A DNA stretch of 45,395 bases from assembly GCA_001805125.1 (NCBI GenBank), contig MHEF01000121.1, positions 1,841 to 47,235 on the forward strand, read 5' to 3'. A program made the position numbers and the translations under genes. Source of the DNA: Nitrospirae bacterium RBG_13_39_12 (lineage in GTDB: Bacteria > Nitrospirota > Thermodesulfovibrionia > Thermodesulfovibrionales > SM23-35). The notes beneath the pieces were generated by a model. The model searched no databases and was not told where the DNA came from. It saw only the letters and a program-made list of their open reading frames with translations. This document shows positions 1 to 14,993 of this stretch, piece after piece (within the stretch, counting starts at the first letter, position 1; every line of letters begins with the position of its first letter).

Positions 1-310
1 TAAAGTCTTCAAAACCTTCCCAGGCATCCCCCATGGTATCGGAAAAGGAGAATGCGATGTTCAGTTTACCCTGGTGTACTCCTATCACATTAGCCGCACC
101 TCCCATGGGAACAGAAGAACCGGCCAGGTTAGGGCTCGCTTTCAGGACATCTTCGAGCATGGCATTGCCAAGTACTGCCCAGGTCCCACCCACAGGAGAC
201 GTTCCCCAACGAACATCGTACTTCTGAACTTGCCCGCTGGCATTCACAGATAACAGTGAAACCAAAGCCAATACAGATAAATAGACCAAAATCTCTCTTT
301 TCTTAAACAT
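1..310 (-). CDS. TAXI-family TRAP transporter solute-binding protein (N-terminal part; gene runs off the window start)
   Basis: Not in the ORF track because there is no stop in the window. My translation from ATG (complement of 308-310) is MFKKREILVYLSVLALVSLLSVNASGQVQKYDVRWGTSPVGGTWAVLGNAMLEDVLKASPNLAGSSVPMGGAANVIGVHQGKLNIAFSFSDTMGDAWEGFEDF. It has a signal peptide followed by a G-T-x-x-x-GG...GG-x-x-N pattern typical of TAXI receptors. A GGAGG RBS lies on the complement of 319-323. The gene sits immediately downstream of the TRAP fused permease. Confidence 0.7.
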   Translation of the reverse strand, partial: MFKKREILVYLSVLALVSLLSVNASGQVQKYDVRWGTSPVGGTWAVLGNAMLEDVLKASPNLAGSSVPMGGAANVIGVHQGKLNIAFSFSDTMGDAWEGFEDF

Positions 311-339
311 TTTTAGTTCCTCCTTTCAAAGTTTTTATT

Positions 340-2232
340 TTAGGCTACTTCCACTTTTCCCATCATTCGACGCCGCCCAAGGAGCTGGTTGATAATTAAG
401 AAGGCGCTGCCAACTCCACCCACCAGATCGAGAATTCCAAGCGGAAAGATCAAACAGATGGCTGAAATGGCGGCAATCACCCGCTCATAGATCTTCAATG
501 TACGTAATAAGTAACCTTCACCGGCAACTGCAATACACCAGACACCCACGCAGGCTGTCAATCCGTTTCCGAGAATTTTCCAGAGGCTCCCCACCCATAG
601 AAGCGACTGATCATAGGCAAACATAAAGGGGACAATGAATGCCACCAACGACATCTTCGTAGCTAACCAGCCCGTTTTCCATCCATCGGCATCCGCAAGG
701 CTCGCCGCAGTGTAAGCCGCAGAAGCATCCGGCGGCGTAATAAGAGCAAGACAGGCATAGTAGAAGGCAAACAGGTGTGCCACATAAATAGGCAATCCCA
801 ATTTCACTAAAGCCGGGATCACAGTGGTTACCTGGAGAATATATGCCGGCGTAGTCGGTAACCCCAGACCTAAGACAAACGCAATCACCATCCCCAGAAA
901 CAAACCGGCCAGCAAATTCCCCCCTGTAATGCTCATAAAGGCACTGCCAAACCTCTGGCTTAAGCCGGTGAGATCAAGTGTGCCGCAGAGAATACCAGCC
1001 GTGGCAGTGGAAACACAGACGATGAGCATCCCTTTTGCGCCGTCCTCCAGGGCAGCAAAGACAGAGGGCACGCTCAACCGGGTCGTTTTACGAAACTGGC
1101 TGGCAATGATGGCCGTGACCGTGCCCATGGCACCCGAAAGCCTGGGGGTGTAACCCATTACGAGAAAATAAAGGAGGACAGCAATGGGGATAAGCATATG
1201 ACCATAGTCAAGCAGGATAACCTTGAAAGTAAACTCGGGTTTTAAGCCTTTGAGCTTTAAACGCCGAGCTTCGAGATCGACATAGCAAAAAAGACTTAAG
1301 TAATAAAGGATCGCCGGGAAAGCGGCATAAAAACAGATCTTGGCATAAGGGATACCGGTAAAGGCGGCCATGACAAAAGCGGCAGCACCCATCACCGGAG
1401 GCATGATCTGCCCCCCACAGGAAGCCACAGCCTCTACCGCCGCTGCAAAAATCGGAGGGTAACCTGCCTTTTTCATCATGGGGATGGTGATGCTTCCAAT
1501 CGTGGCCACGTTTGCCGTAGCGCTACCGGAAATCATCCCCATAAGTGAACTGGCCACGACAGCCACTTTTGCAGGTCCACCCACGTAGCGACCTGCCACA
1601 CTGGTAGCGATATTACTAATCAGGAAGGAACCGCCACTCCGCATCAGGACAGATCCAAAGATGATAAACAACGCAATTTCGGTTGCAGAAACTCCTAAGG
1701 GAATTCCAAAAATTCCACCGAGGGAGAGATAGTTAAATTCGACCACTGAAACCCAGCCCACAGGAGCGGAATGCAATATACCAGGGAGGTAGGGACCGAT
1801 AAGGGGGTAAATTAGAAAAGCAACCCCTACATAGACTAACGCCGGATTGACCACCCGCTTTGCCCCTTCCAACACCAATAGGATGAGCAGAGTTCCCAGT
1901 AAATAATCGTACCAGCCTAACGGGCTCACCAGGGGAAATCGCCCCACTGTAATCCATTCATAACGCGCAAATAGGTAGCCGATCACAACGACGGTGGCTG
2001 CAATAGAGATGACATCGAGCTTCCCAATGGCTCGCCCCTTAGCGGTTTTCCCTGTTGTATAGACCAGAAAGACCAGGATCAAACCCAACCCTAAGTGAAC
2101 CGACCGCTGCATCAGGGCGTCGAAAGTTCCAAAGAGGGCCGTGTAGATGTGAAAAACGGCCATCGCAACGCCCACCACCGCTCCCATCCGTTGACTCACC
2201 GAGCGATCAAACCAGAACTGTTTCCAGGACAT
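340..2232 (-). CDS. TRAP transporter fused (DctQ-DctM type) permease, TAXI-associated
   Basis: 630-aa, very hydrophobic, multi-helix ORF of the size and architecture of TAXI-TRAP fused permeases. ATG 2232 lies 1 nt after the stop (2234-2236) of the Mo-subunit gene. It is followed by the TAXI receptor gene. Confidence 0.85.
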   Translation of the reverse strand: MSWKQFWFDRSVSQRMGAVVGVAMAVFHIYTALFGTFDALMQRSVHLGLGLILVFLVYTTGKTAKGRAIGKLDVISIAATVVVIGYLFARYEWITVGRFPLVSPLGWYDYLLGTLLILLVLEGAKRVVNPALVYVGVAFLIYPLIGPYLPGILHSAPVGWVSVVEFNYLSLGGIFGIPLGVSATEIALFIIFGSVLMRSGGSFLISNIATSVAGRYVGGPAKVAVVASSLMGMISGSATANVATIGSITIPMMKKAGYPPIFAAAVEAVASCGGQIMPPVMGAAAFVMAAFTGIPYAKICFYAAFPAILYYLSLFCYVDLEARRLKLKGLKPEFTFKVILLDYGHMLIPIAVLLYFLVMGYTPRLSGAMGTVTAIIASQFRKTTRLSVPSVFAALEDGAKGMLIVCVSTATAGILCGTLDLTGLSQRFGSAFMSITGGNLLAGLFLGMVIAFVLGLGLPTTPAYILQVTTVIPALVKLGLPIYVAHLFAFYYACLALITPPDASAAYTAASLADADGWKTGWLATKMSLVAFIVPFMFAYDQSLLWVGSLWKILGNGLTACVGVWCIAVAGEGYLLRTLKIYERVIAAISAICLIFPLGILDLVGGVGSAFLIINQLLGRRRMMGKVEVA

Positions 2233-2233
2233 C

Positions 2234-4489
2234 TCAATACTTCTCCTTTAAGAGCTTCCAAAGGCTTTCCGAAGTTACAGGAATTTCTTTCGCACGAACT
2301 CCTGCGGCTGTAGCAATCGCGTTTAGAATCGCAGGTGCGGTTGGAAGCAGTGCCGGCTCACCAACCCCCTTTGCTCCAAATGGACCTGTTGGTTCCTCAG
2401 TTTCTACAAGCAATGAAGTGACTTCAGGAAAATCTAAAGCCGTAGGGATGAAGTACTCACTGAAACGGGGATTCTGTATTACTCCGTCCTTCAATATCAC
2501 CTCCTCCATTAAGCCGTAGCCCAATCCCATTGAGACCCCTCCCTCTATCTGGCCTTCCACATTGATCGGGTTTCCTGCCTTTCCCACATCATGACAGGCT
2601 ACGATATCGAGGACTTCAACTTCTCCTGAGTCCATATCTACGGAAACTAATGCACCCTGGGTGGCAAAAGCGTAGGTTGCATAGGGATTTCCCTGCCCTG
2701 TCTTCATATCAAGGGAGGTTGTCTCAGGACTGAAAGTGCCCTCTCCCACTGGTGAAACCCCTTCTTTCTTCATTTTTTTGACTACTTCTACGATCGATAT
2801 CTTCTGATGAGGAGCCTCTTGAGGGTAGAAGAAGCCATGGTCAAGGACAAGGTCTTCTTTGGGAGCCCCGATCATCGAGGCCGCAGTTTCCTGGAGTAGG
2901 CTCCGAAGATTTTCGGCAGCCATCTGGACCGATCGACCAACGATATAGGTAACTCGGCTTGCTGTCGAGGTTCCCGAATCTGGACAAAGATCTGTGTCTC
3001 CAATCACCCATTTAATCTGTTCTACCTCGGAGTTCATTACCTCTGCCACAATCTGGGTCATCACGGTTGCAGAACCCTGTCCCACGTCTCCACAACCCAT
3101 ATAGAGCGTGAAATCTCCTGATTCGTTCGCTTCAATCCGAGAAAATCCGGGGTTCGGAAGTCCTGTTAAACCAATCCCGTAAAACATGGTCGCTATTCCC
3201 CACCCATATCGCTTGGAACCAAAAGAGATGGGCACGCCTCGCCTTGTTATCTCCTCCTTCACCCTCTCGATCGTTTCCTTATAGCCCACAGAGACATTGA
3301 GACTTTGACCCGTCGCAGTTAGCGATCCGGGCTTCATCCCGTTTTTCAAGCGGATCTCAAAGGGGTTCATTTTAAGAATTTCAGCAAGGATATCCATCTG
3401 GGATTCGTGGGCCACCACGACCTGAGGAACACCAAACCCCCGCATGGCTCCAGCAACTGGATTATTGGTATAGACCGCTCTTGCCCTCACATACACATTC
3501 GGGATTTCATAGGGGCCAGCGGCATGAACGAGACCCCGTACAAGAATCGAGGGACCATAAGAGGAATAGGCTCCTGTGTCTGCGATGATCTCCACTTTCG
3601 CGGCAAGGATTCGGCCATCCCTCGTGGCACCCGTGGTATAATGGATCAAAAAGGGATGACGCTTTGTGGAAGCAATGAAGGATTCCTCTCGATCATAAAC
3701 CATTTTGCATGGCCGCCCGGTCTTAAGGCTCGCGAGAGCCACGTAGTATCCAGGAGCCAGACACTGCTTATCACCAAAAGAACCGCCGATCGTCGTGAGG
3801 ATGACCCTCACTTTTTCGGGAGGAAGGCCGACAACCCCGGCCATCTCTTTGTGATCGAAATGGGCGTGTTTACTGGGCATCCAGACCGTGATCTTACCAT
3901 CTTCATATTTTGCAACACCCGCCTCTGGTTCGAGGTAGCCATGTTCAACCATCTGTGTACGATAAGTGTTCGTTATCACCACGTCCGCTTCTTTTATTGC
4001 CTGATCAGGATCTCCTCTCAAGAGCACCCTTTCGAGAAGGACATTTCCTGACTCGTGAATCTTTATGGCTTCGGGAATAAGCGCCTCCTCAGGTGAAAAA
4101 ATTCCGGGCAGGTCTTCATAATCAACCCGAATCAGAGAAGTAGCCTCTTCAGCTACTTTCTCGGTTTCTGCCGCAACCATCGCCACCGGGTCCCCAATAT
4201 AACGAACCTTGTCATCACATAGAACGGGCTGATCCTTATTTCTGGGACCCACTCGATTCGTTCCAGGAATATCCTTATGAGTAAACACTGCCACCACACC
4301 AGGATGGGTCTCTGCCTTTTCCGTATCAATCCTTAATATCCTGGCATGAGGTCGATCGCTCCGTAGAATCTTAAGGTGAACCATACCAGGAAAGAAAAGA
4401 TCTCCGGCATAGAGAGCCCTCCCGGCCAATTTATCAGGGGCATCCACCCTTAGAATGGACTGGCCAAAAGTCTGAAAGGGCTTAGCCAT
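2234..4489 (-). CDS. Xanthine dehydrogenase/CO dehydrogenase-family molybdopterin-binding large subunit
   Basis: 751 aa. Family motifs are visible: TTIGGSFGDK (GG-x-FG-x-K), AMRGFGVPQ, and C-terminal GAKGVGEPALLPTAPAILNAI (catalytic Glu of G-E-P). ATG 4489 overlaps the stop of the upstream zinc-ribbon ORF by 8 nt (ATGGCTAA). Confidence 0.9.
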   Translation of the reverse strand: MAKPFQTFGQSILRVDAPDKLAGRALYAGDLFFPGMVHLKILRSDRPHARILRIDTEKAETHPGVVAVFTHKDIPGTNRVGPRNKDQPVLCDDKVRYIGDPVAMVAAETEKVAEEATSLIRVDYEDLPGIFSPEEALIPEAIKIHESGNVLLERVLLRGDPDQAIKEADVVITNTYRTQMVEHGYLEPEAGVAKYEDGKITVWMPSKHAHFDHKEMAGVVGLPPEKVRVILTTIGGSFGDKQCLAPGYYVALASLKTGRPCKMVYDREESFIASTKRHPFLIHYTTGATRDGRILAAKVEIIADTGAYSSYGPSILVRGLVHAAGPYEIPNVYVRARAVYTNNPVAGAMRGFGVPQVVVAHESQMDILAEILKMNPFEIRLKNGMKPGSLTATGQSLNVSVGYKETIERVKEEITRRGVPISFGSKRYGWGIATMFYGIGLTGLPNPGFSRIEANESGDFTLYMGCGDVGQGSATVMTQIVAEVMNSEVEQIKWVIGDTDLCPDSGTSTASRVTYIVGRSVQMAAENLRSLLQETAASMIGAPKEDLVLDHGFFYPQEAPHQKISIVEVVKKMKKEGVSPVGEGTFSPETTSLDMKTGQGNPYATYAFATQGALVSVDMDSGEVEVLDIVACHDVGKAGNPINVEGQIEGGVSMGLGYGLMEEVILKDGVIQNPRFSEYFIPTALDFPEVTSLLVETEEPTGPFGAKGVGEPALLPTAPAILNAIATAAGVRAKEIPVTSESLWKLLKEKY

Positions 4490-4718
4490 CTTTCTCCTCT
4501 TGGGGTTCGTAGATCATCTCGGGTCTGATCCCGCCTTTGATCTGGGCCACGGCTGAGGTCCCACTTCCTCCCATATAGATTCCCGGGCTCTCTTTCTTGT
4601 AAAAATAATGGCCGCAGTAAGGGCAATGGAGTCTCACTTCCAGCTCAAAGAGGATGAGATCACAATAGTAAACCTTTTTACAATCCGGACAAGTGACATT
4701 AAAGATATCCATCTTCAC
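4482..4718 (-). CDS. Small zinc-ribbon protein, possible VdcD/BsdD-like accessory subunit of the UbiD-type enzyme
   Basis: 78 aa with two CxxC pairs (CPDC ... CPYC). It is translationally coupled on both sides: GTG 4718 overlaps the UbiD stop as GTGA, and an alternative ATG lies at 4712. Its position directly after a UbiD gene mirrors the vdcC-vdcD / bsdC-bsdD arrangement. Confidence 0.5.
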   Translation of the reverse strand: MKMDIFNVTCPDCKKVYYCDLILFELEVRLHCPYCGHYFYKKESPGIYMGGSGTSAVAQIKGGIRPEMIYEPQEEKDG

Positions 4719-6109
4719 CTCTGCTTGATATAATCTTCGAGTCTTATTTTTTCTAAAACGTCTCGCGGAACTTCCCCGCGCTTTGGAAAAGGCCGATCAA
4801 TAGGTTTTGTGGCATCGATGATCATTCCATCCGACCGGATTTCGTGACGGAGAGAAGGGTCAAGGACATGACCCTGAAGTCCTTTTAGAATGACGACGTT
4901 CTCACTCGCCTGAACCCTCGTGGCCACTGCCCACATCACCTCCTGGAGGTTGGCCGGGTTGATATCATCATCCACAACGATCACATGTTTCAGAAAATTG
5001 GAAGCAGCGAGGGCTGCCATGGCCGCCCTTAAAGGTTGCCCCTCCATGGTCTTTTTTAGACTGATGATCAGATTGAAAGGGCCTCCAGAACCGATCCAAC
5101 AGGTCTCTTTCACCGAAGGAACAGCCTTTTTCACCTCACCATAAATCGAAGCCTCGATCGGGAGATGGGCGTTGAGATGCTCTGTCTTGCAAGGAAAGAT
5201 GTCGATTAAAATGGCATCCTGCCGATAGGTGATGGCCTTCGCCTCAAAAAGACAGGCAAGCCTCTGAGAACCACTATAACCTGTGAATTCCCCGAACGGA
5301 CCCTCCACCACCCTCCTCCCAACATGAATCTCACCCTCAATCACCATCTCCGAGTCCGCAGGAACCAGAAGGTCCTCTCCATAAAACTCCGAGGGAACGA
5401 TCCGCAAAGGCTCCCCTAACACCCCTCCGGCTGCATCATACTCATCCTGATCAAGAGGGGTAAGCAATGCACCCGTAATGTGAAATGCAGGATGATGCCC
5501 CAAGACCACACCCATAGGAATATTTTTACCCTCCGACTCCGCCCTCGAAAAATAAGACCAGAGATGACGAGGAGACATATAGATCCCAAGATGTCTTGCG
5601 TCGAGGTACATCATCCGATTCCAGGAAACATTGTAACGCTTCCCTCCCGGTTCTTTCGATACAATGATGGGCGTGAGGTAGGGACCTCCATCCATATCCA
5701 CATGGCGGACAATAGGAAGTTCCCTCAAATCCAAGGTTTCGTCCCTTTTCACAACCTGTTTCACCGGAGCCTCTTCTTTCGAAATCTGTAAAGGCTTAAT
5801 CGCCTTTGTCTGTCGCTCAAGCATCTTTTCGATGATCTCGATTCGTTTACCTTTCGGAATGTCTAAGGCAGCTCCGATCTTTGGAAGTGTCCCGAACGTA
5901 TTTATCAAAATCTTGAAAGGACTTAATTTCCCCTTGATATCTTTCACCCGTTCAAACAGAACTGCCTCAAACCTTCCCTGACATTCCATCTGATGAAGGA
6001 CCGCCGTCACCTCGAAGGCCAATGGGTCCACTTCTTTAGATACATAAACCAGTTCATCCGGAATTTCCTGTTCAATCTTCTTTAGCCAATACCTCAGATC
6101 TTTAACCAA
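4715..6109 (-). CDS. UbiD-family (prFMN-dependent) aromatic (de)carboxylase
   Basis: 464 aa. It has a UbiD-like N-terminus (VKDLRYWL) and the hallmark EGPFGEFTGYSG motif (compare EGPFGDHTGYY in UbiD). The TTG start at 6109 is preceded by GGGGAGAG and overlaps the 2Fe-2S subunit stop by 8 nt. Confidence 0.9.
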   Translation of the reverse strand: MVKDLRYWLKKIEQEIPDELVYVSKEVDPLAFEVTAVLHQMECQGRFEAVLFERVKDIKGKLSPFKILINTFGTLPKIGAALDIPKGKRIEIIEKMLERQTKAIKPLQISKEEAPVKQVVKRDETLDLRELPIVRHVDMDGGPYLTPIIVSKEPGGKRYNVSWNRMMYLDARHLGIYMSPRHLWSYFSRAESEGKNIPMGVVLGHHPAFHITGALLTPLDQDEYDAAGGVLGEPLRIVPSEFYGEDLLVPADSEMVIEGEIHVGRRVVEGPFGEFTGYSGSQRLACLFEAKAITYRQDAILIDIFPCKTEHLNAHLPIEASIYGEVKKAVPSVKETCWIGSGGPFNLIISLKKTMEGQPLRAAMAALAASNFLKHVIVVDDDINPANLQEVMWAVATRVQASENVVILKGLQGHVLDPSLRHEIRSDGMIIDATKPIDRPFPKRGEVPRDVLEKIRLEDYIKQR

Positions 6110-6605
6110 GTGACTCTCCCCTTTCCTTTCGCATCTTATCCGAAGCTAACCGAATGGCTCGAATGATCTTTATATAGCCTGTGCAGCGGCAGAGGTTTCC
6201 TGAAATGGCCTCCTTCACTTCCTCAATGAGGGGTTCAGGATTTTCATCGAGGAGGACTTTTGCCGAAAGCAACATTCCTGGCGTGCAATAACCGCATTGC
6301 ACAGCCCCCACTTCCCAGAAGGCCTGTTGAAGAGGGTGTAGTTTGTCTTTCTCTGCCAATCCCTCCACTGTCAAGATCTCTGCCCCATCTGCCTTCAAAG
6401 CAGGAATGAGGCAGGCGAGCACTGCCTTTCCATTCATAACAATGGTACACGCCCCGCATTCTCCCTCTCCGCATCCCTTCTTTGTTCCAGTGAGCCCCAA
6501 ATCTTCACGTAAAAGATTGAGGAGCATACGATCGGGTGAGACAGATAGGGTATATTCAAACCTGTTCACCCTTATTTTAATTGGTTTTTTACTTCCATCT
6601 TCCAT
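6102..6605 (-). CDS. (2Fe-2S)-binding small subunit of the molybdenum hydroxylase
   Basis: 167 aa. It carries the plant-ferredoxin-type motif CGEGECGACT plus second-cluster motifs CGYCTPG and CRCTGY, as in CoxS/XdhA-N type subunits. Confidence 0.9.
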   Translation of the reverse strand: MEDGSKKPIKIRVNRFEYTLSVSPDRMLLNLLREDLGLTGTKKGCGEGECGACTIVMNGKAVLACLIPALKADGAEILTVEGLAEKDKLHPLQQAFWEVGAVQCGYCTPGMLLSAKVLLDENPEPLIEEVKEAISGNLCRCTGYIKIIRAIRLASDKMRKERGESLG

Positions 6606-6639
6606 TTGATCACCTTGACCTGTATCAGCATTTTATGAC

Positions 6640-7287
6640 TTAACCCAGAATCTCTTCAAATATCTTTTTCCGATCCCATTTCAACCAAGTTTCTATGGAT
6701 ACTTTGTCAAATTCCTGAAAGTATTTCGGGGACTGGAATGTATATTTTTGGGAGTATTCTTTAACCACACTCCCTATCTCCTTCATGATCTCAGGTTTTA
6801 CTTTTAAAGTAACCTTTTTACCTTTATACATAAAGATCGCCACTGGTTGATTGAGAGGGGCTACCGTGATGGCTCCTCGACCCAAGCTCGCTCCTGTCGA
6901 TACCTGAATCCCATCGTTCAGACAGCTCAAGGGTTGGATATATCCGGAAAAGGAGATTACATCTAATTCATCAAAGGGCGCCTCTAAGATCTCCCTCGCT
7001 CTAACTCCCATCTTCGCCCCAACGATAGACAACATTCCCAGGTGCCGGTGAAGTTCATTGGTCAAGAGGCAGGCTTTCCACTCCTCCCTGCCATGCTGTT
7101 CAATTATTTTTTTTACATAGGGCTGCAGATCCCCTTTGAATAGCGCAGGATCGGTTGGAAATTCTTTCAAACAAACCGTTTCGCGTGGGCTCAGACCATG
7201 TTCAACGTCGGCGCTTAAAAATCGAAGTAAACAGAAGGTTAATCCTACACATAAAATGAATACTACCGCAAATCTTTTTCGTAACAT
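6640..7287 (-). CDS. FmdE-family-like protein with N-terminal signal peptide/membrane anchor
   Basis: The track ORF 6640-7359 is trimmed to ATG 7287, which has a strong AAGGAGG RBS upstream. After MLRKRFAVVFILCVGLTFCLL the sequence follows the FmdE pattern: HRHLGMLSIVGAKMG ... C-LNDGIQVSTGASLGRG ... VAIFMYKGKKVTLKV (compare fHGHlCPG..G ... C.vDaiQv.TGCT.GKgnl...GK.a.tf). Confidence 0.5.
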   Translation of the reverse strand: MLRKRFAVVFILCVGLTFCLLRFLSADVEHGLSPRETVCLKEFPTDPALFKGDLQPYVKKIIEQHGREEWKACLLTNELHRHLGMLSIVGAKMGVRAREILEAPFDELDVISFSGYIQPLSCLNDGIQVSTGASLGRGAITVAPLNQPVAIFMYKGKKVTLKVKPEIMKEIGSVVKEYSQKYTFQSPKYFQEFDKVSIETWLKWDRKKIFEEILG

Positions 7288-7371
7288 ATTTTCCTCCTTT
7301 TTTGTGACATCGCATAGGCTGGATGTCCGGTTATTTTGATTTCCCGCTTCAAAACCCAATAAAAATAAAGG

Positions 7372-8250
7372 TCACTTCTTTCCCTTTGCTTCCTCCAATA
7401 CCTTTTCGATGGTGCGTATTAAATTGACCCTTACCATCTCCTTTCTATAGAAGGCGCTTCCACGAAGGCTATCTCTTGGGCTGGCTTCCTCCGAAGCAAT
7501 CCGGCAAGCTTCGAGAAGGCTCTCAGGAGAAACCTCATTCGCTTCCAGATAGGTCTCTGAGTTTTTTGGCCGGAAGGGTTTCTTTGCAACAGGTCCAATG
7601 GCTATTCTTGCCTTTTCAATTCGCTTCTTCGAAGGGTTAAAGACAATGGCAACTGCTCCATTCAAAATAGGGAGGGCAAGGGTTTTTCGCCTTGCCATCC
7701 GGAAGAAACCTGTCGCACCATATTCTCCTAATTTCCGAAACCTTACTTCCTTCACCACCTCCTTTCTCGCATCAACGGCTGAAATGCCTACTCCTTGATA
7801 AGCCTCCTCCAAGGCGATCCAACGCTCTCCACTCTTTGAGACCACTTTTATCTCTGCCTCAAGAACCATCAATGGAATTGCACCATCACCTGCAGGTTGG
7901 GCACTGATCACATTTCCAACCAATGTCGCCATATTCCGGATCTGGGGAGAACCCACATGGCCACAACCTTTTGCGAGGGCTTCTGCTTCTCTTCGGATGA
8001 GAGCACTTCGGGCCACCTCGGCATGGGTTACTCCGGCTCCTATCCGAATCCAACCGTCCTCCTCCTGGATCTGTTTTAACTCATCTATCCCGGTGATATC
8101 GACAAGAAGATCGACCCTATGCTCACCCCGTTTCAGTTGCAGGATGAGGTCTGTCCCACCAGCGATCACGCGGCCCTTCCCCTCAGCCCCCTCTAAAAGT
8201 ATCAGAGCCTCAGAAAGATCTTTCGGTTTTTTGTAAGCAATCCATTCCAT
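7372..8250 (-). CDS. FAD-binding medium subunit of the molybdenum hydroxylase (CoxM/XdhB type)
   Basis: It has the AGGTDLILQLK motif, TLVGNV, and a CO-dehydrogenase-flavoprotein-like C-terminus. The track start 8322 is a TTG. ATG 8250 (MEWIAYKKPKDL) gives the usual protein length. Confidence 0.85.
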   Translation of the reverse strand: MEWIAYKKPKDLSEALILLEGAEGKGRVIAGGTDLILQLKRGEHRVDLLVDITGIDELKQIQEEDGWIRIGAGVTHAEVARSALIRREAEALAKGCGHVGSPQIRNMATLVGNVISAQPAGDGAIPLMVLEAEIKVVSKSGERWIALEEAYQGVGISAVDARKEVVKEVRFRKLGEYGATGFFRMARRKTLALPILNGAVAIVFNPSKKRIEKARIAIGPVAKKPFRPKNSETYLEANEVSPESLLEACRIASEEASPRDSLRGSAFYRKEMVRVNLIRTIEKVLEEAKGKK

Positions 8251-8336
8251 AACTGGGAATATACTTTCCAATTTCTGAGGTAACCGGACTAATACAAACG
8301 CATTATATCTTTTGTAGGGCAACCCTTAAGGGTGGC

Positions 8337-9041
8337 TCAGACCTCCACACCGAGGTATCGGATGAGAACCTCTTTTTTCCCTTGAACTTCTTCTTTTCCT
8401 GCATTGTATTCTATCTTCCCCTTCACCATAAAATAGACGCTATCGGCCATCGTTAATGCAAAAGGAATCTTTTCTTCTACCAACAAGATCGCCATCCCGC
8501 TCTCGTTGAGCTTCTTGATGACTTCCATCAGTTTGGAAACAAAAATGGGCATCAGGCCTGTTGTCGGTTCATCCAACAAAAGGATCTCAGGTCTTTTTAC
8601 CAACGCCCTTGAAATAGCGAGGGCCTGTTGTTCTCCTCCACTCAAGGTTCCTGCCAATTGATGCAGCCTCTCCCGAAGGACCGAAAAGAGATGAAAAACT
8701 CCCTCTAACTGACGTTCATCCGACTGGTCAGTCATGCCTGTTTTTAAATTTTCCAATACGGTCATCTTTGGAAATAGATGCCTCCCCTGGGGAACGTATC
8801 CGATACCCTTCCTCGCTACCTTATAGGCTGCGAGCTTGGTAATATCTGCATCTTTAAAAAAAATGGTTCCTGCCCTGGGCTTGATGAGGCCCATGATGGT
8901 CTTCAACATAGTGGTTTTTCCAGCCCCATTCCGGCCTAACAGGGCTACGATCTCCTTTTTTTTTACCTCCAGGGATGCTCCCTGTAAAATATAACTTCTC
9001 CCGTAATAGGTGTGGATGTCATCCACTCTTAATAAACTCAA
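8337..9041 (-). CDS. ABC transporter ATP-binding protein, LivF-like
   Basis: Walker A GRNGAGKTT, signature LSGGEQQ and Walker B LLLDEP. It overlaps the upstream ATPase gene by 4 nt. Confidence 0.9.
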   Translation of the reverse strand: MSLLRVDDIHTYYGRSYILQGASLEVKKKEIVALLGRNGAGKTTMLKTIMGLIKPRAGTIFFKDADITKLAAYKVARKGIGYVPQGRHLFPKMTVLENLKTGMTDQSDERQLEGVFHLFSVLRERLHQLAGTLSGGEQQALAISRALVKRPEILLLDEPTTGLMPIFVSKLMEVIKKLNESGMAILLVEEKIPFALTMADSVYFMVKGKIEYNAGKEEVQGKKEVLIRYLGVEV

Positions 9042-9793
9042 CTGATCTCTCCAAGATATATTCTTTGAACCTCTTCGTTCTTGCTGATCTCATCAGGAGA
9101 ACCTTCGGCGATCACCCGGCCTTCGTTCAAAACGGTGATGATATGGCAGAGACGCAGAACGACGTCCATGCTATGCTCGATTAAAATAATTGTCATCTTT
9201 TTTGACAACCTCTCAACGACTTCTAAAATATTGTCCGTCTCTTTCGGACTCACCCCTTGCGTGGGTTCATCCAGGAGAAGGACAGAGGGTTGGGTGCTAA
9301 TGGCCATGCCTATTTCTAAAATCTTTTGATCTCCATAAGAAAGATTGGAGGCCAATTCGTTCATTTTCTCCTTTAACCCAACCAAGTGACAGATCTCCTG
9401 TGTCTTTTGAGAGAGATCAGCCACATGATGAGCAAGGGTCACTGGATTCCATGGCCGCTTTGCCCTCGAGTTCACTCCCACCCAAATACTCTCATAAACG
9501 GTCATCTCTGGAAAGATAAATGTTAATTGAAAGGTTCGACTCAGACCCTTCTGACAGATGATATGGGGAGTGAGATGGGTGATCTCCTCGCCTCTTAAAA
9601 ATATCTTTCCTGATGTCGGCTGCAACTCACCGGTGATGACATTAAAAAGAGTGGTCTTTCCAGCCCCGTTTGGTCCTATGATACCCCGTACCTCCCTCTC
9701 TTTGATAGTATAGGTGACGTCATCAAGAGCTGTTAAACCGCCAAAACGCATCGTCACTGAAACGGTTTCTAAAAGATTGCTGCCAGAGGCCAT
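9038..9793 (-). CDS. ABC transporter ATP-binding protein, LivG-like
   Basis: Walker A GPNGAGKTT, signature LSYGDQK, Walker B LLLDEP, and a LivG-like C-terminal extension. Confidence 0.9.
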   Translation of the reverse strand: MASGSNLLETVSVTMRFGGLTALDDVTYTIKEREVRGIIGPNGAGKTTLFNVITGELQPTSGKIFLRGEEITHLTPHIICQKGLSRTFQLTFIFPEMTVYESIWVGVNSRAKRPWNPVTLAHHVADLSQKTQEICHLVGLKEKMNELASNLSYGDQKILEIGMAISTQPSVLLLDEPTQGVSPKETDNILEVVERLSKKMTIILIEHSMDVVLRLCHIITVLNEGRVIAEGSPDEISKNEEVQRIYLGEIS

Positions 9794-9799
9794 GGCCCT

Positions 9800-10789
9800 T
9801 TATGTCAACCTCCTGCTGATCACATATCCCAGAATGCCTTTACGGGATATCCTTAAAATCAGTAAGATAATAATACCAAAGAGTATCAAATAGTATGTCC
9901 ACCAAGCACTCACGTAATACTGGAATAAAGACATGATCACTACCCCTATCCACGAACCTGCAAGCGTTCCAAGGCCGCCGATGAGACACCAGACAACAGG
10001 CATGATCGACCAATGAAAACTAAAGAAATCAGCAGACCCATAACGAAGTGTCAGGGCATAAAGACCACCGCTCAAGGCGGCAAACATCCCTGAGACGATA
10101 AAGGCGATCAGCTTATAGCGATAGACATTATATCCTAAGAACTGCACTCTTTTCTCATTTTCTCGGATCGACACAAAGACCCTCCCCATTGGAGATCTGG
10201 CTATCCTGTTCAAGATTAAATAGCTTACGGCCAGGAATATTAGGACAAAATAGTAATTGACCCATGGATTGTAGAGGGAAATGGTTTCAGGTCCAAGAGA
10301 AATGGATGGAAGTTTAATGGAGAGGCCATCATCTCCACCTGTCAACCATGTCATATCCATGGCTAATAGATGGAATACGGCGAAAAAAATAGCGGTGATG
10401 ATGACAAAGTAAGCTTCTGAGAGGCGTACACAGATCAATCCCACGATCAGCGACAGGAGAAGGCCTGCCCCCACGCTGAAGAAGATGGAGGGTAAAATTC
10501 CAAACTTCAGATGGAGTATAGAAAAAATAGCCCCATAGGCCCCTCCACCAAAAAAGACAGAATGGCCCAAGCTGCACTGGTTCGTAAGACCAAAACAGAC
10601 ATCGTATCCCATGGCCAAAATAGAGAAGATCATCATATGGGTCACCAATGATCTCGCACCTTTGGGCAGGAGGATTCCCATTACCACCCACAGGAGTAAA
10701 AAGGTGATGGCGAAGTAATTGAGGGTAGTTCTTTTCTCGCCCACCTTCTCAAATTCCATATCCATTCCCTTTTTAGCCAATGGCTTCAA
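9800..10789 (-). CDS. Branched-chain-amino-acid-type ABC permease, LivM-like
   Basis: 329-aa polytopic membrane protein in the LivH-LivM-LivG-LivF gene order. It overlaps the upstream permease stop by 4 nt. Confidence 0.85.
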   Translation of the reverse strand: MKPLAKKGMDMEFEKVGEKRTTLNYFAITFLLLWVVMGILLPKGARSLVTHMMIFSILAMGYDVCFGLTNQCSLGHSVFFGGGAYGAIFSILHLKFGILPSIFFSVGAGLLLSLIVGLICVRLSEAYFVIITAIFFAVFHLLAMDMTWLTGGDDGLSIKLPSISLGPETISLYNPWVNYYFVLIFLAVSYLILNRIARSPMGRVFVSIRENEKRVQFLGYNVYRYKLIAFIVSGMFAALSGGLYALTLRYGSADFFSFHWSIMPVVWCLIGGLGTLAGSWIGVVIMSLFQYYVSAWWTYYLILFGIIILLILRISRKGILGYVISRRLT

Positions 10790-11646
10790 TCCCTGAACAA
10801 GCCCTGAGGACGACGTATGAGTATCATGATCATAATGACAAAAATCGCTGCCCTGGCCTTCGTGGGAGAAAGCACAGAAGCCAGCACTCCTTCTAATGAA
10901 CAGAGTGATAACGCGGCGATCAAAGTACCCTTGAGGCTACCCAGACCACCGATAATCACCACGATGAAAGAGAGTAGAATCACATTATCGCCCATCAGGT
11001 AGAAAACCTGGTTGATAGGAGCAGCAAGGACTCCCCCTACAGCCGCAAGGACACTACCCATGGCGAAAGTGGTAATGAGCACCTTGTTGACGTCGATACC
11101 CATCGCGCTTGCCATCTCTCTATCCTGCATGGATGCCCTGACCAAAATCCCATAGGAGGTCTTGTATAAAAAAAGCCAGAGGCCCACAAGGATAAGAACA
11201 GAAATGCAGGCGACCAACAAGCGGTAACCAGGATAGTCCACACCAAGGAAATTAAAACTGATGGGCCAAGGACTGATTATCTTTTTGGGAATTCCCCCAT
11301 AAGTCCCAAGGGCGATTTGTTGAATGATGAACGAAATCCCAACTGTGGCGATCATGGTGGAAGAATGATGACCTTCATAGGGTCTCAATATAAAACGCTC
11401 CACCGGCGCTGAAACCAAGATGACGATGGCCGGAACCAATATCAAACTCAGCCAAAAGTTCCCAAGCATTCCTACCACATAAAAGGAAAGGACAGCCCCT
11501 ACCATGTAAATATCACCATGGGCCATATTCACGATCCCCATGACACCAAAGATGAGGCAGTGGCCAATGGCTATTAGAGCGACGATGAGGCCCCAGATCA
11601 GGCCATTAACAAGAAGGAAGAGAATGGTGGTTACAATCTCTGGCAA
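10786..11646 (-). CDS. Branched-chain-amino-acid-type ABC permease, LivH-like
   Basis: 286-aa polytopic membrane protein. Its size and position are typical of LivH. Confidence 0.85.
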   Translation of the reverse strand: MPEIVTTILFLLVNGLIWGLIVALIAIGHCLIFGVMGIVNMAHGDIYMVGAVLSFYVVGMLGNFWLSLILVPAIVILVSAPVERFILRPYEGHHSSTMIATVGISFIIQQIALGTYGGIPKKIISPWPISFNFLGVDYPGYRLLVACISVLILVGLWLFLYKTSYGILVRASMQDREMASAMGIDVNKVLITTFAMGSVLAAVGGVLAAPINQVFYLMGDNVILLSFIVVIIGGLGSLKGTLIAALSLCSLEGVLASVLSPTKARAAIFVIMIMILIRRPQGLFRD

Positions 11647-11724
11647 CGATAAACACCTCTATTCCAAGGCGTGTTTTTAATCTAAAACCCTATAGGCTTA
11701 GGACCCGTTAAAGAACTTTCTCTT

Positions 11725-11930
11725 ACCTAAATTGAGCGATTTTTCGTTATTCATTACATCAAAGATACTGGATTCCTGCTTCCGCAGGAATGACGACTAC
11801 CACCCAATGAATGAAAATGTCATTTCCCCCCTGCTTTCGCAGGGGTAAACTTGTCCCCGCAAAGGCGGGGAACGGGAATCCAGAAGGGTTTATCTTTAAT
11901 AATAATTATTAAGAATCGCTCAATTTAGGT
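11725..11930. repeat. Nested-hairpin REP/MITE-like element (R1) between the binding-protein and permease genes
   Basis: A perfect 17-bp terminal inverted repeat, ACCTAAATTGAGCGATT (11725-11741) / AATCGCTCAATTTAGGT (11914-11930), encloses three GC-rich hairpins. These are 11772-11791 (ATTCCTGC-ttcc-GCAGGAAT), 11828-11845 (CCCCTGC-tttc-GCAGGGG) and 11854-11871 (TCCCCGC-aaag-GCGGGGA). The 25-mer at 11770-11794 is the exact reverse complement of 32270-32294. Confidence 0.75.
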
Positions 11931-11939
11931 CTTATAAAT

Positions 11940-13190
11940 TTATAATGGTTCTTTTGTATGATCAATTGCAGGTGGATAAGTCGCATCCTTTGCAGGGATC
12001 CTTGCCACCACCTTTATCTCTCCCTTTTGGATCTGTTCTATATAGAGTCCTGTAATAGTAAAGTGATCTTCAGCACGGATATGCATATCCCCCTGAGGAA
12101 ACTCTAAACTCTCCTTGAAGACCATGCCTTCCAAAGTCTTAATAACCTTTGGCGTGTCTGCTCTTCCTTTCCATCCACTCTTCTCAATAGCCGCTTTGAG
12201 CGCAAAGAAAGGTTGCCAGACCGCCCAGTCATAAGCCAAAACAAAATATTTGCCTGTGCCAATCTCCTTCCCATCCCCATCGACTTTGATCAGATCCCGA
12301 TAAGCCTTATTAAATTTGGTGTTCAACCCCTCCAGGCGGGTGGGATAGGAGGTGATGCAATAAGCCCCTTCTGCGGGAGCACCGAGCTGCTTTGGATCCT
12401 GAGCCGAAAAGGCATAGACGGCGCCCAGTTTTTTGATGTCAGGCCGCACCGCATGCAAATCTCTGATGAAGGAGAGGAAGTCAGAACCATAGCATGCAAA
12501 GTAGATTGCTTCTGCCTCCTTCGGGATTTTGCCTTTTAAATAAGGAAGCCAGTCACCCGTGCCCAGGGGTACCCGGATCGCTCCGAGCACGGTCCCGCCG
12601 CTTTCCGTAATATAGGTTTTGAAGTCGCTCTCGTTTGCCCATCCCCAGGCAAAATCGACGACGACGGTCATCCATTTCTTTCCTATCTTCTCAATCGCAA
12701 ACTTCGCCGCAGCCTTGCACTCCTCTCTCACATTTGTGGCTGACTGAAAGACATACCGGTTCCCTTTATCTCCTGAGATCTCTGTCGCAGAACCACAGGG
12801 GAAATAGGGCGTCTGAAGCTCTTTGGCGATAGGGGCGCATGCGATACAGATTCCCGAATGGTTGGAATCGAAGACAAAACTTGCCCCGTTTGTCTCAACT
12901 AACTTTCTAAATTTCAAAGCCCCCACTGAAGGCTTCGATTCTGTATCTTCCACGTAAAGTTCGATAGGGCGGCCCGCAATCCCTCCCTCTTTGTTCACCT
13001 TTTCGACCGCTGCCACCATCACCTTCTCATGAGAATATCCATAGGCCGCCAGCCCCCCTGTTTTTTCAGCAAGCAACCCGATCTTGATAGGCTCCCTTTT
13101 CGCCTGACCTACTGCCCTTCTTTCGCTCGTACTGATCCAAATGACGAATGCCAGCATGATGATTAACAAAACGATGACATACTTCTTCAT
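11940..13190 (-). CDS. ABC transporter periplasmic substrate-binding protein (LivK/PBP1 type)
   Basis: 416 aa with an N-terminal signal/anchor (MKKYVIVLLIIMLAFVIWI). Its size and pattern match a type-1 periplasmic binding protein, and it is the first gene of the Liv-type operon. Confidence 0.85.
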   Translation of the reverse strand: MKKYVIVLLIIMLAFVIWISTSERRAVGQAKREPIKIGLLAEKTGGLAAYGYSHEKVMVAAVEKVNKEGGIAGRPIELYVEDTESKPSVGALKFRKLVETNGASFVFDSNHSGICIACAPIAKELQTPYFPCGSATEISGDKGNRYVFQSATNVREECKAAAKFAIEKIGKKWMTVVVDFAWGWANESDFKTYITESGGTVLGAIRVPLGTGDWLPYLKGKIPKEAEAIYFACYGSDFLSFIRDLHAVRPDIKKLGAVYAFSAQDPKQLGAPAEGAYCITSYPTRLEGLNTKFNKAYRDLIKVDGDGKEIGTGKYFVLAYDWAVWQPFFALKAAIEKSGWKGRADTPKVIKTLEGMVFKESLEFPQGDMHIRAEDHFTITGLYIEQIQKGEIKVVARIPAKDATYPPAIDHTKEPL

Positions 13191-13293
13191 AAGATCCTCC
13201 TTTCTACTCTATTTTTCGACAGTTAAAGATTAACATTCTGACCCACCGCAAAAATCGAACGAAAATGATTAATATTGAATTTCTATCTGTTTG

Positions 13294-14271
13294 TCAAGCT
13301 GAAATTCCATTCTCGACATAGTTCAAGAGCCCCTCAAGGCTCATCCCTTGAATGCCCATCTTTTCCAGTGTCCACCCAGTCTTCCAGTAATCTATTCCAT
13401 TAATAATCGAAGCCAGATCAATCAAAGCATTGATAATAGGCGCAGGAACATCTAACATCCTTCCCAGATAAGCCATGGGAACGATTCCAAAGGGAATATC
13501 TTCGGTTAAAAAACGGTAGGAGAGATTCTCGGGCGCCCGGATAAACCGATTGGGTTCGCTTTCTTGAAGGGCCTGATAAAGAGAACCGGATTGGTAAGCC
13601 CTTTCGCTGGTTGAACCTGCTTTATAGAAGAAATCCAAAAACCGATCGCTCTTGAAACTGAGCTTCTGACAGATAGCCATTCTTTCCTTATCAACCTTCT
13701 CCATGACCCGGGCAACAGCCGGAGTAGTGCCTTCACAGTAGTAAGAAAAATTTCCCTTCGCGTGTTCAATCCACCCGGCATTCAAAATCATTCCCGGTGG
13801 ATGGAGCACTGCGTTGATATTGGTCAGTGATGTCTCCAGAACGTTCTTCCGTTCTGTACTTTCAGGAAAGAGCCCCTTAAATATCTGATAGCATTCCATT
13901 GTCTTCTTACCCGGGAGCGATGCAAACTGGACTTTCGACCGAGATGTGATTTTCACTCTGGAAGGACCAACCAGACGACAGATATAGGTCAAGGTGTTTG
14001 TCTCGCAGATGGGGACATCCATTCTTGCTCCCCTTTCCCGCAGAATCTTTTTAAAGGCTAAAGCCCCTCCTGTGGATCCAGGATTTAGGACAACCATCTG
14101 TCCATTTTTGAGGTAGGGTGCGCAAGCATGGGCATAGTATTCATGGGCAATAGCCGGGACAGTGATGAGGATGGCCTCTGCTTCTTCCAAAGCTTCTTCG
14201 ATGGTCTCACACACTCGGTGGATATGGACAAACTGTTCACCGGAGGGTGAAGCACTTATCAATCTCTCCAT
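13294..14271 (-). CDS. NAD/NADP octopine/nopaline dehydrogenase-family protein, apparently lacking the N-terminal Rossmann GxGxxG segment (possible gene relic)
   Basis: The stretch ILITVPAIAHEYYAHACAPYLKNGQMVVLNPGSTGGALAF aligns by eye to about residues 60-110 of family members. The ORF starts only about 20 aa upstream of that stretch, and the space further upstream is occupied by the TtcA-like gene (stop 14259). Confidence 0.65.
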   Translation of the reverse strand: MERLISASPSGEQFVHIHRVCETIEEALEEAEAILITVPAIAHEYYAHACAPYLKNGQMVVLNPGSTGGALAFKKILRERGARMDVPICETNTLTYICRLVGPSRVKITSRSKVQFASLPGKKTMECYQIFKGLFPESTERKNVLETSLTNINAVLHPPGMILNAGWIEHAKGNFSYYCEGTTPAVARVMEKVDKERMAICQKLSFKSDRFLDFFYKAGSTSERAYQSGSLYQALQESEPNRFIRAPENLSYRFLTEDIPFGIVPMAYLGRMLDVPAPIINALIDLASIINGIDYWKTGWTLEKMGIQGMSLEGLLNYVENGISA

Positions 14272-14993
14272 TTTGAGAAGGTATAATCCATTTTAATATT
14301 GGACAGAGATCGAAAGATATTGCCCTTCACCCTGCGGTTCTTTTTCTCCAGGGACTCAATCAATTCCTTCACCTCTCTTCTCTTTGTCTTTCCAGAACTC
14401 GGGCAACCGCTGGGACCAAATGGGAGTTCCATCTCCTTGGCGAACCGCTCAATCTTCTTCTCCTCCAAAAGGGCTAATGGCCGAATGAGAGTAATTTTCC
14501 CCTTGAACAAGGTTTGAAGGGGAAGCATGGTGCTGATCTCGCCGGAGTAAAAAATATTTAAGAGAAGTGTTTCGATGATGTCGTCCTTGTGATGACCAAG
14601 GGCAATCTTGTTACATTTCAAACGATGGGCCAGATGGAAGAGCTGCTTTCTCCTCTCCCAGGAGCAAAGGAAACAGGGGTTCTCTCGATTCTCAGAACTG
14701 TTCGCCTTCCTTCCGATATCTGTGAATTCAATATGATACGGAAGGCCGTGCATTTCAAAAAAGCCTTTCAGGACTTCAGCTCTTCCAGAATCAAAACCTA
14801 AGTCAATGTGGACAGGGATCAGCTCGTAATCAATCGGAACCCGTTTCTGACGCTCCTGAAGGAGGTTTAGCAGTGTGAGACTGTCCTTTCCTCCTGAAAC
14901 CCCCACTAAGATCCGGTCTCCATCCTGGACCAATCCGAAACGATGGATGGCCTTCCCTATTAAACTTCGAATCTCTTTTTCCCAGTAAGCCAT
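14259..14993 (-). CDS. ttcA: TtcA-family PP-loop ATPase (tRNA 2-thiocytidine synthetase-like)
   Basis: PP-loop SGGKDS, CFLCS (CxxC), ALGHHKDDIIETLLLNIFYSG (compare E. coli TtcA [21 protein letters not shown]), and a C-terminal Cys (GCPSSG). Confidence 0.8.
   Translation of the reverse strand: MAYWEKEIRSLIGKAIHRFGLVQDGDRILVGVSGGKDSLTLLNLLQERQKRVPIDYELIPVHIDLGFDSGRAEVLKGFFEMHGLPYHIEFTDIGRKANSSENRENPCFLCSWERRKQLFHLAHRLKCNKIALGHHKDDIIETLLLNIFYSGEISTMLPLQTLFKGKITLIRPLALLEEKKIERFAKEMELPFGPSGCPSSGKTKRREVKELIESLEKKNRRVKGNIFRSLSNIKMDYTFSKWRD

Follow-up and report, generated by a model that had tools for sequence, protein, structure and literature searches.

Do the closely spaced genes for a molybdenum (Mo) hydroxylase, a UbiD-type decarboxylase, a small zinc-ribbon protein and a TAXI-type TRAP transporter in the genome of Nitrospirae bacterium RBG_13_39_12 encode the enzymes of one pathway, and if they do, for what kind of compound? 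The genes lie at one end of a 45,395-nucleotide stretch (contig MHEF01000121.1, positions 1,841 to 47,235 of the forward strand), which is part of a metagenome-assembled genome (MAG) and is referred to, at its full length, as the window. An earlier note made from this sequence had read the cluster as a module for uptake, hydroxylation and (de)carboxylation of an aromatic or heteroaromatic carboxylate, with the UbiD and zinc-ribbon genes embedded inside the hydroxylase operon. Comparison with related loci bears out both statements: the gene order is kept across several phyla, the two enzymes co-vary in sequence, and TAXI-TRAP genes accompany them in many loci. With somewhat better than even confidence we favour the view, suggested by these comparisons, that the cluster is conserved because it serves anaerobes in the catabolism of some small carboxylic acid with a ring, in all likelihood an N-heteroaromatic ring.

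Conservation of the gene arrangement

An alignment of the UbiD protein was scanned against one genome per GTDB species, which yielded 77 related loci (numbered with the prefix L). The proteins of the window were mapped onto these loci and all open reading frames (ORFs) of the loci were clustered. The Mo subunit gene was on the same strand as the UbiD gene in 40 loci, and in 29 of these the UbiD, zinc-ribbon (Zn) and Mo subunit genes were contiguous, with the zinc-ribbon gene in the middle. The contiguous triad was found in Thermodesulfobacteriota ('Deltaproteobacteria'), Bacillota, Thermoleophilia, Binatia and Syntrophorhabdus MAGs, and the window itself comes from a Nitrospirae MAG. The arrangement is thus not confined to this contig; the opposite outcome, an order unique to it, had been named in the earlier note as one that would speak against its proposal.

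The larger set, which also comprises the subunits binding flavin adenine dinucleotide (FAD) and the [2Fe-2S] clusters (FeS), was present in more than 30 loci, either as FAD-FeS-UbiD-Zn-Mo-TRAP-TAXI or in a permuted order. The order just given occurs in many MAGs of uncultured 'Deltaproteobacteria'/Thermodesulfobacteriota (among them Desulfobacteraceae and Desulfarculaceae), the permuted order FeS-Mo-Zn-UbiD-FAD in Syntrophorhabdus, Peptococcaceae, Clostridia and Thermoleophilia, and the order UbiD-Zn-Mo in Binatia. The module is also present in an isolate genome, that of Neomoorella stamsii. The positions of the FAD and FeS genes vary between loci. In the Desulfarculaceae-type loci L009-L012, L026, L030 and L079 (e.g. 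L079:9283-17772) the genes read GntR-UbiD-Zn-Mo-TRAP-TAXI-MBL (MBL, metallo-beta-lactamase) with no FAD or 2Fe-2S genes in the operon.

The spacing of the triad is conserved as well. According to the gene calls, relatives with 57-86% UbiD identity have a gap of 1-2 nt between the UbiD and zinc-ribbon genes and an overlap of 1-8 nt between the zinc-ribbon and Mo genes. When identity to the window UbiD was compared with identity to the window Mo subunit over 32 loci, the two values were closely correlated (r=0.97). The recurrence of this tight arrangement is far beyond chance.

Gene string and junctions in the window

Domains were assigned with Pfam and NCBIfam models, and the Pfam domains of UbiD and of the hydroxylase subunits scored above the gathering thresholds. 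The co-directional genes form an unbroken string on the minus strand (13190-1) in the order Liv-type ABC (ATP-binding cassette) importer, FAD subunit, FmdE-like protein, 2Fe-2S subunit, UbiD, zinc-ribbon protein, Mo subunit, TRAP permease and TAXI receptor; from the FAD subunit onwards the ORFs, their domains and this order are as first described from the sequence, and the importer is an addition. The enzyme genes are those for the FAD-binding medium subunit (8250-7372, 292 aa; FAD_binding_5 and CO_deh_flav_C), the 2x[2Fe-2S] small subunit (6605-6102; Fer2 and Fer2_2), UbiD (6109-4715, TTG start; UbiD_N, UbiD and UbiD_C, PF20695, PF01977 and PF20696, and TIGR00148), the 76-aa zinc-ribbon protein (4712-4482; C8/C11 and C30/C33, no Pfam family) and the Mo subunit of the xanthine dehydrogenase (XDH) family (4489-2234; the hammerhead domain Ald_Xan_dh_C, MoCoBD_1 and MoCoBD_2). 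They are followed by a fused DctQM-type TRAP permease (2232-340; Pfam DctM; TIGR02123 score 571.9, cutoff 320.65) and a TAXI-family TRAP solute receptor (310-<1; TIGR02122 E=2.5e-9, 36 bits on the fragment).

The genes are tightly packed. The FeS and UbiD genes overlap by 8 nt (UbiD TTG at 6109, FeS stop at 6104-6102), and so do the zinc-ribbon stop and the Mo ATG; the Mo stop is separated from the TRAP permease gene by a 1-nt gap, and the permease gene from the TAXI gene by 29 nt. These overlaps and the 1-nt gap agree with the earlier note, but the 4-nt overlap it gave for UbiD and the zinc-ribbon gene is in fact a 2-nt gap. The zinc-ribbon start was placed at the ATG at 4712 and not at the GTG at 4718, because every homologue begins MDIF, and this start leaves a 2-nt spacer after the UbiD stop. 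To judge by this spacing, the two genes are still tightly coupled.

Promoter and terminator scans of positions 1-14500 gave counts at the level of shuffled sequence and are therefore silent on operon structure. Rfam and transfer RNA scans of the window gave no match, the molybdenum cofactor riboswitch included. No XdhC gene was found in the window, no coenzyme A (CoA) ligase gene within or near the cluster and no UbiX gene (PF02441) in the 45 kb, the window being only part of a MAG. The absence of all three had been pointed out before; for the CoA ligase it holds for the cluster.

UbiD decarboxylase

The window UbiD scored 295.3 with TIGR00148 (cutoff 244.85). Its best match in the PDB was the HmfF protein of P. 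thermopropionicum (6H6V, 245 bits, 38% identity), followed by VdcC (160 bits), AroY (128 bits) and E. coli UbiD (96 bits). The ubiquinone-biosynthesis type was tried and rejected (NF008175, PRK10922: 102.9, cutoff 788); a clustering of the window protein with that type, which had been named in advance as contrary evidence, is thus not what is found. A VdcC-type assignment was rejected as well (NF041204: 266.7, cutoff 650).

The residues R165, E269 and E274 (the E-R-E set) and L416 are invariant or nearly so in the UbiD alignment and match HmfF residues. Payne et al. are said to have described in 2019 the site of HmfF for 2,5-furandicarboxylate (FDCA) as H296-R304-R331. The 6H6V structure is that of HmfF (PMC8988006), and the role of the site His has been confirmed (PMC7976604). 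H311 of the window UbiD aligns with HmfF H296, a position occupied by Asn in the permuted subclade, and R304 and R331 are replaced by I318 and P344. The Ile/Pro pair is found in nearly all of the approximately 34 clade-A sequences (three have I/S or L/P), and the Binatia clade keeps only R304 of the three HmfF positions. The window UbiD is therefore to be placed beside HmfF as its sister, and FDCA would not be what it decarboxylates. The label '2,5-furandicarboxylate decarboxylase' that the JGI annotation attaches to hundreds of metagenomic homologues is, on the evidence of these residues, probably wrong. A monocarboxylate, or an acid hydroxylated beforehand, would suit a protein that has lost the two HmfF arginines for a distal carboxylate.

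A sister group of UbiD proteins, clade B (L031-L066, e.g. L033, L040 and L041), is 41-48% identical and has T-K-R at the HmfF triad positions. It occurs in Clostridia and other taxa, and its genes are accompanied by the same zinc-ribbon ORF, TAXI-TRAP genes, UbiX, an AsnC-like regulator and a PAC_bac-like protein, with no Mo hydroxylase. The clade-B UbiD probably decarboxylates a dicarboxylate.

Small zinc-ribbon protein

An ORF of 48-104 aa homologous to the zinc-ribbon protein and carrying the CxxC...CPxC pattern adjoins the UbiD gene in 66 of 75 loci, in all four UbiD clades. A profile search of 1.84 billion representative proteins returned 72 clusters; with few exceptions these are small proteins that stand alone. 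The AlphaFold2 (AF2) model of the window protein (pLDDT 58.6) has short beta strands and a disordered tail. From its constant position the protein is best read as a dedicated small partner, a proposed subunit, of this UbiD branch and not as an independent gene. The family, so far without annotation, would be a new family of small subunits.

VdcD is a zinc-ribbon protein and the obligate activator of VdcC, bound near the E-R-E loops (PMC8379154), and the vdcC and vdcD genes of P. megaterium overlap in a like manner. By analogy, the window protein may be an activating subunit of UbiD, and UbiD expressed heterologously without it may fail, as does VdcC without VdcD. A phmmer search against the PDB gave no VdcD match.

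Molybdenum hydroxylase

The architecture of the XDH family is complete in the window, with the Mo subunit composed of hammerhead and MoCoBD_1/2 domains, a 2x[2Fe-2S] subunit with 8 Cys and a FAD_binding_5 subunit. The best solved relative of the Mo subunit is NdhL of the Eubacterium barkeri nicotinate dehydrogenase (396 bits, 46% identity). The second half of the protein resembles NdhM (258 bits), so that the 751-aa ORF corresponds to a fusion of NdhL and NdhM and departs from the NdhFSLM type, in which the Mo subunit is split into L and M. Together the two matches amount to 654 bits; the alpha subunit of 4-hydroxybenzoyl-CoA reductase (4-HBCR) is second with 357 bits. The catalytic Glu is kept in the motif GAKGVGEP, which aligns with the 'GVGEL/GIGES' of D. 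gigas aldehyde oxidoreductase and CoxL; this Glu is the equivalent of bovine E1261.

All NCBIfam equivalog models that matched the hydroxylase subunits scored below their cutoffs, and no model specific to nicotinate dehydrogenase was among the matches. A 4-HBCR assignment was rejected, as the scores with TIGR03194 (541, cutoff 995), TIGR03195 (108, cutoff 405) and TIGR03193 (165, cutoff 258) were far too low. The [4Fe-4S] insertion is typical of the beta subunit of 4-HBCR; the FAD subunit of the window has only 2 Cys and therefore lacks such an insertion.

Transporters, accessory genes and flanking regions

The transport genes comprise the fused DctQM permease and the TAXI receptor fragment, of which the window holds the signal peptide and the N-terminal 103 aa, the gene running past the window edge. 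A full-length TAXI orthologue (L081:16155-17126) scored 217.7 with TIGR02122 (cutoff 84), and TAXI genes 47-66% identical follow the TRAP permease in approximately 15 related loci. Upstream of the FAD gene lies a complete Liv/HAAT-type ABC importer (8337-13190, minus strand; Peripla_BP_6, two BPD_transp_2 and two ABC_tran domains) made up of a binding protein (13190-11940), two permeases (11646-10786 and 10789-9800) and two ATPases (9793-9038 and 9041-8337). A Liv importer (75-82% identity) precedes the module in L001 too, and a diverged one in L010-12, L016, L018, L021, L023 and L026. Further upstream, positions 14259-17014 (ABC-2 permease, HhH-GPD glycosylase and a PP-loop TtcA-like protein) are syntenic with L087:1-1975. 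L087, from a Thermodesulfobacteriota MAG, has an 82% identical UbiD and neither a Liv nor a TRAP importer at its module. Because of this synteny in the absence of importers, the importers seem to have been swapped around a stable enzyme core.

UbiX, regulators and hydrolases are found in relatives. A GntR/FCD regulator is encoded in 14 clade-A loci. A hydrolase of the MBL fold (about 309 aa) is encoded in 15 clade-A loci and in no locus of another clade (B and C included), usually directly after the TAXI gene; its solved relatives are uncharacterised proteins only. UbiX is adjacent in six clade-A loci (L005, L017, L024, L026, L067 and L076) and in 12 clade-B loci. An Amidohydro_1/3 gene directly follows the Mo gene in L088, amidohydrolase and M20 peptidase genes lie near the module of an 86% identical relative, the N. 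stamsii locus has an M20 peptidase, an amidohydrolase and a PucR regulator, and the Binatia loci have Amidohydro_2. Judged by their recurrence, UbiX, the GntR regulator and the candidate ring hydrolases are part of the module in relatives. In three of the closest relatives with readable context, a set of AFOR, Pyr_redox_2, ThiS-like and Fer4 genes follows the Mo or TAXI gene (L001:14030-17230, L087:14438-18383 and the contig of P0013). It resembles a tungsten aldehyde oxidoreductase complex, which hints at an aldehyde intermediate.

The gene between the FAD and FeS genes (7287-6640, minus strand) encodes an FmdE-like protein (PF02663, E=7e-16) with an N-terminal signal peptide, and its ATG at 7287 is preceded by a strong ribosome-binding site, AAAGGAGG. 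The earlier note had listed it in the gene order; the gene and its family are confirmed, but it lies outside the conserved module, as no homologue was found in any of the 77 related loci, and in L001, the nearest of them, the FeS gene comes directly after the FAD gene. Members of the family (about 215 aa) have a conserved signal peptide at the N-terminus and are frequent in Desulfobacterota; in the one other genome examined (L083) the gene stands in an unrelated context after a CCG/Fer4 protein. Taken together, the comparisons indicate that it is a lineage-specific insertion that encodes a predicted secreted protein. A role as a substitute for the XdhC chaperone was rejected on the grounds of the signal peptide, the absence from relatives and the unrelated context elsewhere: being secreted and lineage-specific, the protein is an unlikely stand-in. 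Many members of the family carry the JGI name 'pyrimidine-specific ribonucleoside hydrolase', which looks like a misannotation.

The ORF at 13294-14271 (minus strand) matches only the C-terminal helical domain of octopine/nopaline dehydrogenases (PF02317), has no recognisable N-terminal Rossmann motif and overlaps the PP-loop gene with its start; it may be truncated or its start miscalled. From 24000 to 45395 the G+C content falls from about 45-50% to 29-40% and coding turns to the plus strand. This part contains a polysaccharide-type gene cluster (sugar transferase, Poly_export, AMP-binding enzyme, Wzz/tyrosine-kinase-like, B12 radical SAM, lipid A-type acyltransferase, MBOAT, GT4, radical SAM/SPASM, GH5-like, PAPS reductase-like and sulfatase proteins). 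A surface-polysaccharide island of low GC content and a chimeric assembly of the MAG could each account for it.

Comparison with known systems

That a Mo hydroxylase and UbiD occur together in known pathways only as separate units, as the earlier note had stated, does not hold. Cluster I for pterin/lumazine degradation in Cupriavidus sp. LA-1 encodes lumazine dehydrogenase (LuDH), the isomerase DHLI, xanthine-8-carboxylate decarboxylase (XCDC), UbiX, amidohydrolases and GntR (Doi et al. 2025, PMC12391406). It joins a three-subunit Mo dehydrogenase with a UbiD. The same paper takes a similarity of >60% to the proteins of cluster I as its criterion and notes variants in which, of the three subunits, the Mo-binding one alone is left (PMC12391406). 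Like the module with its additional genes in relatives, it combines a three-subunit Mo hydroxylase, UbiD, hydrolase-fold enzymes and GntR in one cluster; its substrate is an N-heterocycle, as that of the module probably is. In contrast to the module, the lumazine-type clusters have no zinc-ribbon ORF and no TAXI-TRAP, their genes are not interleaved and their hosts are aerobic soil bacteria; in the lumazine pathway hydroxylation comes first and isomerisation then creates the carboxylate. Neither the amidohydrolase-type isomerase pair DHLI nor a pterin deaminase was found in the window. A counterpart on the S. medicae plasmid pMl3 (L084, 209636-228913) encodes two amidohydrolases, UbiD, UbiX, NCS2, a GTPase, the XDH Mo, FeS and FAD subunits and GntR; its UbiD shares no more than 32%, and its Mo subunit 39%, of residues with the window proteins. 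UbiD matches were obtained in 116 Sinorhizobium plasmid records, the gene context having been viewed in one.

The Hmf systems of Cupriavidus basilensis HMF14 (HmfF/HmfG plus HmfABC(DE), for FDCA and 2-furoate) and Geobacillus kaustophilus pHTA426 likewise apply a UbiD using prenylated flavin mononucleotide (prFMN) and an XDH-family Mo enzyme to one heteroaromatic ring, with oxygen taken from water. Unlike these, the window module is interleaved and not composed of separate units, lacks a CoA ligase, a hydratase and XdhC, has TAXI-TRAP instead of an MFS transporter and occurs in strictly anaerobic hosts. The Geobacillus cluster includes XdhC and an adenylate-forming enzyme and has no zinc-ribbon ORF. 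Neither HmfD (furoyl-CoA synthetase) nor HmfE (hydratase) was found in the window or in conserved neighbourhoods of the module.

The VdcBCD/ShdBCD/BsdBCD operons (structures 7AE4/5/7) encode non-oxidative decarboxylases of hydroxyarylic acids, with B as the UbiX, C as the UbiD and D as the small zinc-ribbon subunit. With them the module shares a UbiD gene followed, with overlapping or abutting stop and start, by a zinc-ribbon gene of about 75 codons with the CxxC...CxxC pattern. The Vdc operons differ in having no Mo hydroxylase, and the window zinc-ribbon protein has no detectable homology to VdcD. NdhFSLM of E. barkeri (3HRD), an enzyme with selenium at its Mo site, is likewise organised into FAD, 2x[2Fe-2S] and Mo parts and, in an anaerobe, hydroxylates a heteroaromatic carboxylate with water; in the window, by contrast, L and M are fused, a decarboxylase is embedded in the operon and no nicotinate-fermentation genes are nearby.

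Literature searches for the combination of UbiD, XDH and TAXI found no description of it in the papers that were covered, and a search on pyridine dicarboxylates brought up nothing relevant. The module extends the known pairing of a Mo hydroxylase with a prFMN decarboxylase (Hmf and the lumazine cluster of 2025), and it is distinguished from both by the interleaved and coupled genes, the zinc-ribbon protein, the TAXI-TRAP and Liv importers, the MBL-type hydrolases and the anaerobic hosts.

Proposed pathway and alternatives

In the pathway that we envisage, the acid would be imported by the TAXI-TRAP system, the Liv-type ABC system being an addition in this lineage. A two-subunit prFMN decarboxylase, formed by UbiD and the 76-aa zinc-ribbon protein, would then take off the ring carboxyl, and the nicotinate-dehydrogenase-like Mo hydroxylase would add a water-derived hydroxyl group beside the heteroatom to give a lactam or lactone. 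Finally, a hydrolase encoded nearby in relatives would open the ring, the candidates being the MBL-fold proteins, the amidohydrolases and the M20 peptidases. We infer the class of the substrate and the order of decarboxylation and hydroxylation, as well as any physical complex between the enzymes.

Several observations weigh against this pathway. The best solved UbiD relative, HmfF, works on a furan and not on an N-heterocycle, and in the window no UbiX, hydrolase or regulator stands beside the module. The operon of several Desulfarculaceae-type loci is without FAD and FeS genes, a puzzling state for an XDH-type enzyme, whose Mo subunit has to be re-oxidised. The hydrolases differ by lineage (MBL, amidohydrolase, M20, AFOR), and the downstream chemistry may not be uniform. 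No homology between the zinc-ribbon protein and VdcD came to light: with an alignment of 64 family sequences, hhalign gave a probability of 7.6% for P. megaterium VdcD, and a Foldseek search of the PDB with the low-confidence AF2 model returned only generic zinc-ribbons (best E=0.67).

It is possible, though we consider it doubtful, that decarboxylase and hydroxylase are physically joined in a single complex of UbiD, the zinc-ribbon protein and the Mo subunit. In it the zinc-ribbon protein would serve as activator of UbiD and perhaps also as a bridge between UbiD and the Mo subunit, and a volatile, toxic or unstable decarboxylation product would go straight to the Mo site. The usual position of the zinc-ribbon gene between the UbiD and Mo genes, the loci that have the Mo subunit only in the operon and the tight conserved junctions all fit such a complex. 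If it exists, it would be the first case of physical coupling between a prFMN enzyme and a molybdenum hydroxylase and would define a widespread anaerobic route, overlooked so far, for a heteroaromatic acid that is abundant in nature.

Other assignments of the substrate were weighed against the same evidence. A pyridine carboxylate, with the Mo enzyme acting as a nicotinate- or picolinate-type dehydrogenase and UbiD with its partner acting either on a dicarboxylate before hydroxylation or on a 6-hydroxy acid after it, as VdcCD acts on 4-hydroxybenzoate, would be in keeping with the resemblance to NdhL and NdhM, far above that to any other solved enzyme, with the small VdcCD-like partner, with the loss of the distal-carboxylate arginines, which suits a hydroxy-monocarboxylate, and with the amidohydrolases nearby, enamidase-type ring opening being known from nicotinate fermentation. 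The proposal, a specific sub-case of the pathway outlined above, nevertheless seems rather unlikely to us: 46% identity does not settle specificity within the XDH family, the matching equivalog models stay below cutoff with none specific to nicotinate dehydrogenase among them, and neither 6-hydroxynicotinate reductase nor other genes of nicotinate fermentation were seen in the neighbourhoods. An Hmf-type furan pathway, in which UbiD is HmfF and the Mo enzyme a furoyl-CoA (or furoate) dehydrogenase HmfABC leading, after lactone hydrolysis, to 2-oxoglutarate, would explain why HmfF is the best solved relative of UbiD, why JGI calls homologues '2,5-furandicarboxylate decarboxylase 1' and why His311 is aligned with HmfF His296. 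TAXI-TRAP systems typically carry dicarboxylates, and the MBL-fold hydrolase could serve as the lactonase. We regard this pathway as improbable, since identity to HmfF is only 38%, two of the three FDCA residues of HmfF, R304 and R331, have given way to Ile and Pro in nearly the whole clade, neither HmfD nor HmfE is conserved in any neighbourhood, the gene content of the Geobacillus cluster (XdhC, adenylate-forming enzyme, no zinc-ribbon ORF) is different, and the Mo subunit shares 46% of its residues with NdhL but 37% with the HmfA-like fragment from Geobacillus. The recurring amidohydrolase and M20 genes, too, indicate C-N bond chemistry.

Orthology to the lumazine cluster, with the Mo enzyme as lumazine dehydrogenase and UbiD as xanthine-8-carboxylate decarboxylase, is suggested by the published union of a three-subunit Mo dehydrogenase, UbiD, UbiX, amidohydrolases and GntR (PMC12391406) and by the MBL-fold gene that the S. 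medicae plasmid version also has. The low identity to the S. medicae proteins, the lack of a DHLI-type amidohydrolase pair, a pterin deaminase or an NCS2 transporter conserved with the module, and the missing zinc-ribbon ORF and non-interleaved order of that cluster make it very improbable. A phenolic acid as substrate can be given hardly any probability at all. UbiD and its partner would then be a 4-hydroxybenzoate decarboxylase of the VdcCD type or a phenol carboxylase and the Mo enzyme a 4-HBCR, and VdcC and the 4-HBCR alpha subunit are indeed the second-best solved relatives of the respective proteins; moreover, some host lineages, e.g. Syntrophorhabdus, degrade aromatics. Yet the FAD subunit is without the [4Fe-4S] insertion, the 4-HBCR and VdcC models score far under their cutoffs, there is no CoA ligase, and the hydroxylase-type catalytic Glu is kept at a place where the 4-HBCR alignment has 'ASEG'. 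Finally, that the genes are neighbours by accident or through faulty assembly and that the enzymes serve unrelated pathways is scarcely conceivable. The window does come from a MAG, and GC content and strand bias shift at about 24 kb, but this change is 16 kb away from the module, the enzymes co-vary, and the same triad with its tight junctions recurs in independent assemblies, including 2.7 Mb long-read contigs and the N. stamsii isolate; because the arrangement is conserved in independent genomes, an assembly artefact is excluded.

Significance

UbiD enzymes are sought as catalysts of reversible (de)carboxylation, and few branches of the family have a known substrate. The anaerobic catabolic module that we favour would add to the family a branch with wide occurrence in anoxic sediments, aquifers and digesters and with a substrate pocket unlike that of HmfF. 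A cultured carrier of the module exists, Neomoorella stamsii DSM 26217 (L029, NZ_PVXL01000040.1, 16889-38265). The obligatory tie of this branch to importers of its own and to a Mo hydroxylase that resembles nicotinate dehydrogenase suggests an oxygen-independent route for a heteroaromatic acid.

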